From: Escherichia coli | Lineage (GTDB): Bacteria; Pseudomonadota; Gammaproteobacteria; Enterobacterales; Enterobacteriaceae | Direction: 5' to 3' (one strand) | Assembly (NCBI RefSeq): GCF_016903815.1 | Contig: NZ_CP069973.1 | DNA length: 64,000 nucleotides | Shown here: positions 55,998-56,864 of the stretch, in pieces | How the letters are laid out: each line of letters opens with the position of its first letter | Position numbering within the stretch: the first letter of the stretch is position 1 | The notes under the pieces: model-generated | Databases searched by the model: none | What the model was told of the DNA's origin: nothing | What the model saw: only the letters and a program-made list of their open reading frames with translations | Program-made: the position numbers and the translations under genes

Positions 55998-56864
55998 AAC
56001 CACCTCCCATAAAACATGCATTATAAATGCACCTTTTTGAGGGTTATGTCAAGCTGTTATGAAACACATAATTGATATGTTGATTAGAGGAGAAGATAGA
56101 ATCAATATGGTTGTTTTTCGTATAACTATTTGTTTTACTTTTAGTTTGTGCATTCTGTGTGTTAGGAATAACTTATTAAAGTTTAACTAAAAAATCTCGA
56201 TATAGTCCGCATAGATTACTGTTACTGAATCTTATTGTGTGCATTAGTTGTGTTCTGAAATTTCAATTTAATTACTTATGATATATTTTTAACGATAAAT
56301 GTTTTCCGGGTTAAAGACAGTGGGGGATGAGATAAGCAATATATCATTAATCTTGATTATTTCCAGGATGCCTTTACTGTGCATATAAATAAATCATATA
56401 CGCATCAAATAATGTAAAGGCATCCTTTTAGATATATCTTATCAAATGTTAATGATTTGAGTGGGAAACATGATTCCAGAAACTAATCATGCGGCTACTT
56501 TATAAAAATAATGCCCATATAAAACAGCCAGCGAAAAGGATTACGGATAAAAAAGGAGCGAGATGTGCATAGTTGTTATTTTCCATGTTTAACCACCTTA
56601 AATAATTGATGATGACGGGATGTGCATCTGTAATGCTTTTGTTGAAATGTTATGATAAAAAAGAACTTTTTCATAACATTAAAATGTAATTTATCTAATC
56701 GTTTTTAATAATAAGTGTTGTATTTCTATCCTTGTATCAGCTATTTGATATGTAGTGTTTGTTCATGTTATGTGGAGCTTTACACCATAGCCAGTTTATT
56801 TATACTTTATTCGTCAGCCTGAACAACTGGCATCTGCTGCACTGCGCCATCGAGAGATTGAGAA

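Follow-up and report, generated by a model that had tools for sequence, protein, structure and literature searches.

The ShoB- and Ibs-type toxins of Escherichia coli are 19-35 residues long; apart from a short polar stretch at the N-terminus they are little more than a single hydrophobic helix, and the C-terminal end is hydrophobic as well. Every one of them has a small transcription unit of its own with a long leader, and they remained unannotated until dedicated searches were made. Hok, a small membrane peptide borne by prophages, is about 50 amino acids (aa) long, has a periplasmic domain that contains Cys, and requires both coupling to mok and 3' processing. The lambdoid morons, such as bor, lom, rexAB and sieB, are autonomous units of atypical, AT-rich composition, whose orientation is independent of the phage operons and which are dispensable for lytic growth; and the small membrane proteins of the KdpF, AcrZ, MgtS and CydX class are encoded beside their partner or co-regulated with it. 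Here we describe a gene for a 28-residue, single-helix membrane peptide, MENNNYAHLAPFLSVILFAGCFIWALFL, which occupies positions 56500-56586 (stop codon included) on the minus strand of a 64,000-nucleotide stretch of E. coli DNA; we refer to this whole stretch as the window. The gene lies within the AT-rich tract 56022-56864 of a prophage whose genes are of the Rac-like lambdoid type.

The peptide resembles the ShoB and Ibs toxins in being a small hydrophobic helix with its own unit and long leader, and in having been left unannotated; it differs from them in that there is no sequence similarity, the candidate for an antisense RNA is weak, and the gene is present in single copy rather than in tandem. 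The hok/sok unit, likewise prophage-borne and specifying a small membrane peptide, is found at the same site: it lies 1 kb to the left in the window and adjoins the module of the peptide gene in many relatives, but Hok has no sequence relationship to our peptide, and its gene is on the other strand. The peptide is similar to the KdpF class in its size, its single helix, and its conserved polar and aromatic positions, which hint at a specific partner, yet it has no constant membrane-protein neighbour, the potassium transporter gene trkG being only partly linked to it. Finally, the gene is moron-like in its deviant composition and in its retention in a prophage remnant that has no lytic genes; whereas classical morons are variable insertions, however, it forms part of a conserved module that borders a variable region, and its product is far smaller than that of any described moron. 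The peptide is a new family of a known kind, the small hydrophobic prophage peptides. Our reading of the tract as a whole, to which we assign a probability of roughly 70%, is that it is a mosaic junction whose right-hand module carries a self-contained, conserved gene for this 28-residue membrane peptide.

Two parts of a Rac-like lambdoid prophage, each with an inheritance of its own, meet in the tract. At about 94% identity, relatives have the entire tract in common with the window, including the DUF1971 gene on its left. Relatives at about 77% identity have only 56499-56864 in common, with homology setting in at the stop codon of the peptide gene on the minus strand; it is from these relatives that we conclude that the tract was inherited in two parts. 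The left half, 56022-56498, would belong to a DUF1971 cargo cassette, of which it would supply the control region, with an NsrR-type operator, and a terminal, terminator-like hairpin. The right half, from 56499 to about 56840, would be a conserved module of two divergent transcription units, one serving the nin/Q side and the other consisting of the peptide gene. On the right the module ends at a second recombination junction near 56840, within the nin leader, beyond which the downstream genes alternate: relatives carry either DUF1367 or an unrelated 92-aa phrog_1212 gene. An earlier annotation made from the letters alone, which we call the sequence-only reading, had not noticed that the tract joins two separately inherited halves.

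The region to the left of the peptide stop codon is a hypervariable cargo hotspot. Its contents vary among prophages and include hok/sok, QueH, DUF1971, a subtilase, KAP-type and other large P-loop nucleoside triphosphatases (NTPases), an AAA/OLD-like pair, and others. The site looks like a defence or moron hotspot of Rac-like lambdoid prophages. As to the cargo that directly abuts the stop codon, which differs widely between prophages (L003, L053, L084, L112, L140, L149, L180 and others), we observed a 754-aa subtilase, a 735-aa KAP-type NTPase, a 609-aa AAA/OLD-like protein with a 177-aa partner, and P-loop proteins of 643 and 689 aa.

The sequence-only reading had singled out the open reading frame (ORF) at 56500-56586, and rightly so. 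The frame is present as claimed, a Shine-Dalgarno (SD) sequence AAGGTGG occurs at 56593-56599 of the minus strand, 6 nt from the ATG, and the comparative data show that the frame is a conserved coding gene, equipped with its own expression signals, whose product is a hydrophobic peptide of a single helix. The ORF is intact, at exactly 28 codons, in 256 related loci from IMG/VR, metagenomes and genomes, which comprise 26 nucleotide variants and 20 protein variants. A further retrieval used as its seed 20 nt of non-coding sequence from a conserved block upstream of the gene, and is thus free of bias towards intact ORFs; it finds the ORF intact and at constant distance in all 113 of 113 true homologues, while three further matches were chance occurrences in unrelated DNA. 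The variable sites are distributed over the three codon positions as 9:9:19 (p=0.018), and as 4:8:16 if only non-singleton sites are counted (p=0.008). The ratio of non-synonymous to synonymous polymorphism (pN/pS) is mostly 0.1-0.5, and it is 0.1-0.25 in comparisons with the most divergent variant; a few near-identical pairs yield 0.7-1.0, values that rest on a handful of substitutions. Frame, length, start and stop are all conserved, there is an excess of synonymous change, and one homologue is alike at the protein level only. The variation among these loci shows the signature of purifying selection at the protein level, and on this comparative evidence the ORF is a genuine conserved protein-coding gene.

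The homologue just mentioned, MKEDNYAFYIPFATVVLFASCLVWALFL, emerged from a profile search of 1.8 billion proteins (E=3.5e-5), a search that returned solely relatives of the peptide itself. Counted from an internal Met with its own GGAG, this homologue too is 28 residues long, and its C-terminus is again WALFL. The DNA in which it stands is unrelated: 54 of 87 nt are identical within the gene, and the 100 nt upstream match at 35 positions, which is approximately what chance would give. The locus (L208, 1028-1114; also L209-L211 and L269-L272) belongs to an enterobacterial contig from outside E. coli, where its neighbours are umuDC, EamA, a DUF805 gene and an S9 peptidase.

Conservation of the right-hand module could in principle have a different cause. 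The 340-nt module might be purely regulatory or linker DNA, made up of divergent promoters, terminators and a patch of homology for recombination, in which a frame happens to be open by chance. Conserved linker sequences are frequent at lambdoid mosaic boundaries; the strongest conservation in the module is that of a non-coding block and of the nin promoter, and not that of the ORF; and AT-rich DNA is rich in promoter-like and SD-like matches. But stop codons are abundant in AT-rich DNA as well, and yet, one rare variant aside, exactly 28 codons stay open in 256 of 256 loci. The excess of third-position changes and the low pN/pS likewise count against an incidental frame, as does the L208 homologue, which is alike in protein and not in DNA context. 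We consider it quite improbable that the ORF is incidental.

The module occurs in 1176 of 5426 complete E. coli genomes (about 22%), in one or two copies each, and it is never annotated; the carriers of the peptide gene include clinical lineages and avian pathogenic E. coli (APEC) O1. Proteins of fewer than 30 residues lie under the cut-offs of gene callers. The NCBI Prokaryotic Genome Annotation Pipeline (PGAP) places no feature between DUF1971 and DUF1367 in any genome inspected, and exact look-ups of the 28-residue sequences in a collection of 15 billion proteins returned nothing. A literature search by peptide sequence, by DNA motifs and by lambdoid small toxins found no description of the peptide. 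Nor was the module found in the nin regions of the K-12 prophages DLP12, Rac and Qin, and ribosome-profiling data from K-12 are therefore uninformative about it. When the GTDB species representatives were scanned by peptide patterns, a single locus was recovered, in E. coli strain E69; the family is therefore narrow, as far as such patterns reveal, and a scan of metagenomes gave variants of the E. coli type only.

The gene has also been kept where its prophage has decayed. A prophage remnant beside yebY-copD, in a species whose yebY and copD are just ~85% identical to those of E. coli, has lost the nin genes, Q and the lysis genes, but it keeps trkG, the promoter block and an intact peptide ORF. 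In the remnant (L257, 1041-4084; also L243, L235, L038 and L151), trkG, at 92% aa identity, and the peptide gene with its promoter block are divergent and 1.5 kb apart. Intact prophages and the decayed remnant alike are thus shown to maintain the peptide gene.

That the remnant retained exactly trkG and the peptide gene, and that trkG lies 4.3 kb from the peptide gene in the window, raises the question of whether the peptide is an accessory subunit or regulator of the prophage K+ transporter TrkG, much as KdpF is of KdpABC. Such a pairing would be hard to reconcile with the distribution of trkG, which is found in just 14 of the 35 loci with enough flank to tell and, among clade-B loci, in only 1 of 10 to 4 of 22, depending on the flank required; moreover, there is no trk gene near the L208 homologue. 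On account of the partial linkage we reject a partnership with TrkG as a general explanation, and we regard this role as very unlikely.

The expression signals of the gene are conserved along with it. The SD sequence varies among AAGGTGA, AAAGTGA and AAGGTAG in addition to the form in the window, and its spacing is constant. The 5' leader of the peptide mRNA would extend over 56587-56681 (minus strand) and contains, at its far end, hairpin 1, with arms at 56646-56655 and 56672-56681. The arms of hairpin 1 are conserved and its loop of 15-17 nt is free to vary; it is able to pair on the ORF-sense strand in 27 of 27 variants, in 18 of them through a G.U pair, for which the opposite strand would have A.C. 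The covariation of the leader hairpins is not significant, and occlusion of the SD sequence or start codon by leader structure (for leaders of ~50-90 nt) is weak and not conserved. Two repeats touch the leader. The hexamer GTTATG/CATAAC, two copies of which are the arms of hairpin 1, occurs between 55995 and 56772, 6 times in 880 nt against 0.6 expected, an observation made post hoc; and a direct repeat, CGrGATGTGCAT, present at 56559-56570 and 56616-56627, links the 5' codons of the ORF and its leader.

About 85-130 nt upstream of the ORF lies a near-invariant block of 44 nt, 56672-56715 on the minus strand, which is better conserved than the coding sequence and which is kept even in the most divergent lineage, that of the remnant, where its flanks are unrelated. 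Read on the ORF strand, the block has the form TTATTA-17-TA(A/C)ATT, a site that is present in 57 of 57 variants, and the five block positions that do vary are all inside the spacer. We take this to be the peptide promoter, with a -35 element TTATTA at 56706-56711, a spacer of 17 nt, a -10 element TACATT at 56683-56688, and a start near 56676; its match to consensus, 7 of 12, is weak. Alternatively, the arms of hairpin 1 may themselves serve as the hexamers of a second candidate promoter. Transcription would begin at about 56676 or about 56640, depending on the promoter used, with a leader of ~50-90 nt. There is a promoter footprint upstream and a hairpin downstream in three different flanks; the peptide gene would, like morons, be transcribed alone and independently of the lytic programme.

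The sequence-only reading had suggested a type I toxin. The size and shape of the peptide do fit that idea, but it has no match to a toxin family, and no Rfam RNA lies in the tract. The peptide has fewer than 60 residues, 18-20 of which form a consecutive hydrophobic run, and its own SD sequence stands 6 nt from the ATG. In a fuller version of the idea, the locus is a type I toxin-antitoxin-like unit: a cis-antisense RNA of ~113 nt (~56613-56725, plus strand) would restrain translation of a membrane toxin, and the unit would persist by addiction. The size and composition of the peptide are like those of the ShoB or Ibs toxins, the leader is long and has a 5' hairpin, the module was retained in a decayed prophage, and hok/sok units occupy the same site.

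The candidate antisense promoter (plus strand) has TTTTCC at 56579-56584 as its -35 element and AATAAT at 56601-56606 as its -10 element, with a start near 56613, and it matches consensus at 8 of 12 positions. The site keeps the same position in all clades, TTTTCC lying over the start codon and being followed after 16-17 nt by AATAAT, CATAAT or TATGAT; however, its -35 element matches at just 3 of 6 positions, and the start codons impose a constraint on it anyway. At a suitable distance from it, a second hairpin with a U-rich tail (hairpin 2, CGTTT-TTAATAAT-AAGTG, plus strand, 56700-56729) is a possible 3' end for the RNA. Its stem of 5 bp, 56700-56704 with 56713-56717, lies inside the invariant block and pairs in 17 of 17 distinct variants; two of the pairs are changed on both sides, with G.U intermediates that fit the plus strand only. 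Overlapping constraints from a sense and an antisense RNA would also explain why the block is conserved more strongly than the coding sequence.

Against this proposal, hairpin 2 has only 5 bp, the U-rich tail is absent in the remnant lineage, and the covariation is modest, in that 14 of 500 shuffles do as well. The SD sequence is not consistently sequestered. Elsewhere in the window there is no complementarity of at least 15 nt to the peptide mRNA beyond chance, and hence no partner acting in trans. Comparison with NCBIfam, PHROGs and PADLOC, and with Hok/Gef, Ldr, Ibs, ShoB, TisB, DinQ and ZorO, gave no significant match to the peptide, and the one Rfam match between 52000 and 60000, at E<=1, is sok (55280-55450). 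An antisense RNA of ~113 nt, which would cover the peptide leader as Sok covers that of Hok, is accordingly put forward as a hypothesis only, and an addictive toxin unit of this kind seems to us possible, though doubtful.

As regards the product, a polar N-terminus of 8-10 residues would be followed by a hydrophobic helix of 18-20 residues that reaches the C-terminus, and the peptide is probably a single-pass peptide of the inner membrane with its N-terminus in the cytoplasm. Its site of action would be the lysogen's membrane. Several polar and aromatic residues are invariant (E2, N3/N4, P11, S14, C21 and the WALFL end) and would point to a specific partner rather than to generic membrane damage.

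The cysteine among these residues suggests a further possibility, namely that the peptide is a lipoprotein or spanin-like signal peptide, cleaved at Cys21. The variant in the window does have a lipobox-like LFAG|C, and there are weak matches to an Rz-like spanin PHROG (E=0.009) and to Lp6.6 (E=0.027). In most variants, however, the corresponding residues are LFVL|C, LFVF|C or LFVC|C, which breaks the lipobox; the N-region of the window variant contains no basic residue; and the mature product would amount to 8 hydrophobic residues only. We reject an identity as lipoprotein or o-spanin, which we find scarcely credible: the lipobox [LVI][ASTVI][GAS]C is not conserved, the residue at -1 being mostly L, F or C.

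Several considerations weigh against our reading of the locus as a junction with a self-contained peptide gene, and should be set beside the evidence for it. Two of the retrievals of ORF loci relied on peptide patterns, and are thus biased towards intact ORFs. The sequence variants are closely related and come mostly from one species, so the statistics on codon positions rest on about 37 variable sites. There is a rare frameshifted copy of the ORF (P0009). Both candidate promoters are weak, at 7-8 of 12, and are located in AT-rich DNA, where such matches are common. Our literature search found no transcript, ribosome or protein data for the locus, and the function of the peptide is deduced solely from composition and context.

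As to function, the reading we favour is that of an accessory or modulator peptide that is not lethal; a toxin under antisense control comes next. We would tentatively entertain a more specific proposal, which we think less likely to be right than wrong: that the peptide represents a new family of prophage membrane effectors, acting either as a type I-like toxin restrained by an antisense RNA in cis from within its own promoter block, or as an exclusion or defence peptide that guards the edge of the cargo hotspot, and that it is selected even after the prophage has decayed.

We turn now to the left half of the tract. The inverted repeat reported by the sequence-only reading as 12 bp is real and slightly longer: 13 perfect base pairs, 56365-56377 with 56414-56426, stand 36 nt apart and are followed by T's. 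None of 300 shuffles attains a repeat of this length (mean 8.2), and the folding z-scores are -5.4 (plus strand) and -6.2 (minus strand). The full element, 56365-56429 on the plus strand, is a long hairpin with this perfect outer stem, an inner stem and then TTTT, convergent with the peptide gene. Among relatives, 1-2 uncompensated imperfections occur in the outer stem; in the inner stem, a C-G pair is exchanged for U-A by way of a U.G intermediate, which fits the plus strand only. A terminator scan does not call the element, because its loop exceeds 8 nt: it combines a 13-bp stem and just four T's with a 36-nt 'loop' that is itself partly paired. The repeat accompanies the DUF1971 cassette and shows no linkage to the peptide gene in other lineages, and it is best read, from its sequence, as a plus-strand terminator-like hairpin that closes the cassette. 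The corresponding place in the hok-type flank, immediately ahead of the peptide stop codon, is taken by a hairpin of canonical form, AACCCGC-TTCG-GCGGGTT and then TATTTTAT. The long hairpin of the window may double as the 3' end of the convergent peptide mRNA. The arms of the repeat were also considered as half-sites for NsrR, and were rejected because they match at chance level only.

The other hydrophobic mini-ORF that the sequence-only reading proposed, on the plus strand, is present as described (56059-56190, 43 codons, with an internal ATG at 56107), but its status as a gene is not supported. A GGAG at about 56090 is ~13 nt from the ATG at 56107, which is poor spacing, and no SD sequence precedes the ATG at 56059. 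The ORF exists only in relatives that are 94-100% identical, and its length varies among them (43, 48 or 51 aa); one relative (L028) has a nonsense mutation in it, and its substitutions are mostly non-synonymous, with no excess at third positions. It is because of this variable end, the nonsense mutation and the predominance of non-synonymous change that we regard the ORF as unsupported. The peptide has no significant match in NCBIfam, PHROGs or PADLOC, and one predicted-prophage record labels the ORF 'hypothetical'. The plus-strand ORF is probably incidental and not a gene.

At the left end of the tract, an NsrR-type 11-1-11 palindrome, AACATGCATTATAAATGCACCTT, is found at 56013-56035, which is 16-38 nt upstream of the start codon (55997) of the minus-strand DUF1971 gene. 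Neither this site nor the nin promoter described below was noticed in the sequence-only reading. The palindrome is the sole match in the window to the ytfE operator at up to 3 mismatches, where 0 are expected; it agrees with that operator at 19 of 22 specified positions, and the core of the site is kept in relatives. The predicted site has the form of an 11-1-11 repeat of AAGATGCATTT type close to the start of its target. NsrR operators are known at ytfE, hmp, yeaR and tehA (operator sequences, and yeaR and tehA as NsrR targets, in PMC5320621, Table 4), whereas the site in the window is a prediction beside a prophage cargo gene of YeaR/TehB type. The genes yeaR and tehA are chromosomal relatives of the prophage DUF1971 gene, and the predicted operator suggests that this cargo gene is a nitric-oxide-responsive prophage moron.

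At the opposite end of the tract there is a predicted near-consensus sigma-70 promoter for the genes of the nin region, TTTACA-16-TATACT (56779-56806, plus strand); with agreement at 10 of 12 positions, no other site in the region scores as well. Across 52 sequence variants the spacer changes but neither hexamer does. Downstream of the promoter comes the 5' leader of the nin transcript, which is conserved and covers 56813-56864 (plus strand), with a hairpin formed by 56813-56817 and 56827-56831. Prophages that differ in their first nin gene, DUF1367 or the 92-aa phrog_1212 gene, have this leader in common, and O157 prophages share only the last 49 nt of the tract. The nin/Q genes would be driven by this promoter and leader, divergently from the peptide gene. 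A terminator-like site at 56916-56933, inside DUF1367, was discarded as mere coding sequence, its T-run being TTTTCT in most relatives.

The description of the tract as AT-rich, devoid of long ORFs, and bordered by a YeaR-like gene on the left and nin-type genes on the right is borne out. The content of G and C is 0.28-0.36 in 300-nt windows across 55900-56950, compared with ~0.45-0.54 on either side. No ORF of 60 aa or more lies within the tract, whose longest stop-to-stop frame is 49 codons; this scarcity is only mildly unusual, given that 71% of dinucleotide shuffles hold a frame of at least 60 codons and 29% do not. Silencing of the tract by H-NS is plausible, and the AT-richness is compatible with it. 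An imperfect direct repeat of 28 nt, with 75% identity, was also observed at 56141-56168 and 56232-56259.

The sequence of the window is 100% identical in the chromosomes of several E. coli isolates, for example strain 7/2. The prophage genes run in the order repressor and cro-like genes, ydaT, replication genes, DUF1627 and DUF977; then a BstA-like KilA-N gene on the opposite strand, hok/sok, the DUF1971 YeaR/TehB-like gene (55656-55997, minus strand), which is the left neighbour of the tract, and the tract itself; and then DUF1367 (NinB/Orf-like), DUF1364, a Q-like antiterminator, lysis genes and trkG. The KilA-N protein, encoded at 54152-54925 on the minus strand in the same cargo region, matches the BstA abortive-infection family (PHROG 6287, E=2.7e-89; PADLOC BstA, E=3e-21). 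At 55280-55573, the sok RNA matches Rfam at 101 bits and the hok ORF has just 41 aa (126 nt), as compared with 156 nt for hokD in the relative L002; the hok/sok unit of the window appears to be frameshifted at its C-terminal end and is maybe decayed. The trkG gene, at 60852-62309, is a moron with the lysis cassette on one side and the ParB/terminase genes on the other; the Rac-type prophage that contains it appears to be complete, and K-12 Rac keeps only a truncated version of this arrangement. Where the tract occurs in GenBank 'phage' records, these are prophages predicted by computation rather than isolated phages, and they thus provide no evidence of inducibility.

The stop codon of the peptide gene provides a precise landmark for the right edge of a cargo hotspot that holds hok/sok, BstA-like and other defence-type genes. 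The module is compact, measuring 220 nt in the remnant lineage, and would lend itself readily to studying how small prophage peptides are regulated and why they outlast the phage. If it is expressed, the peptide would be a membrane-active addition to the lysogenic-conversion repertoire of Rac-like prophages.

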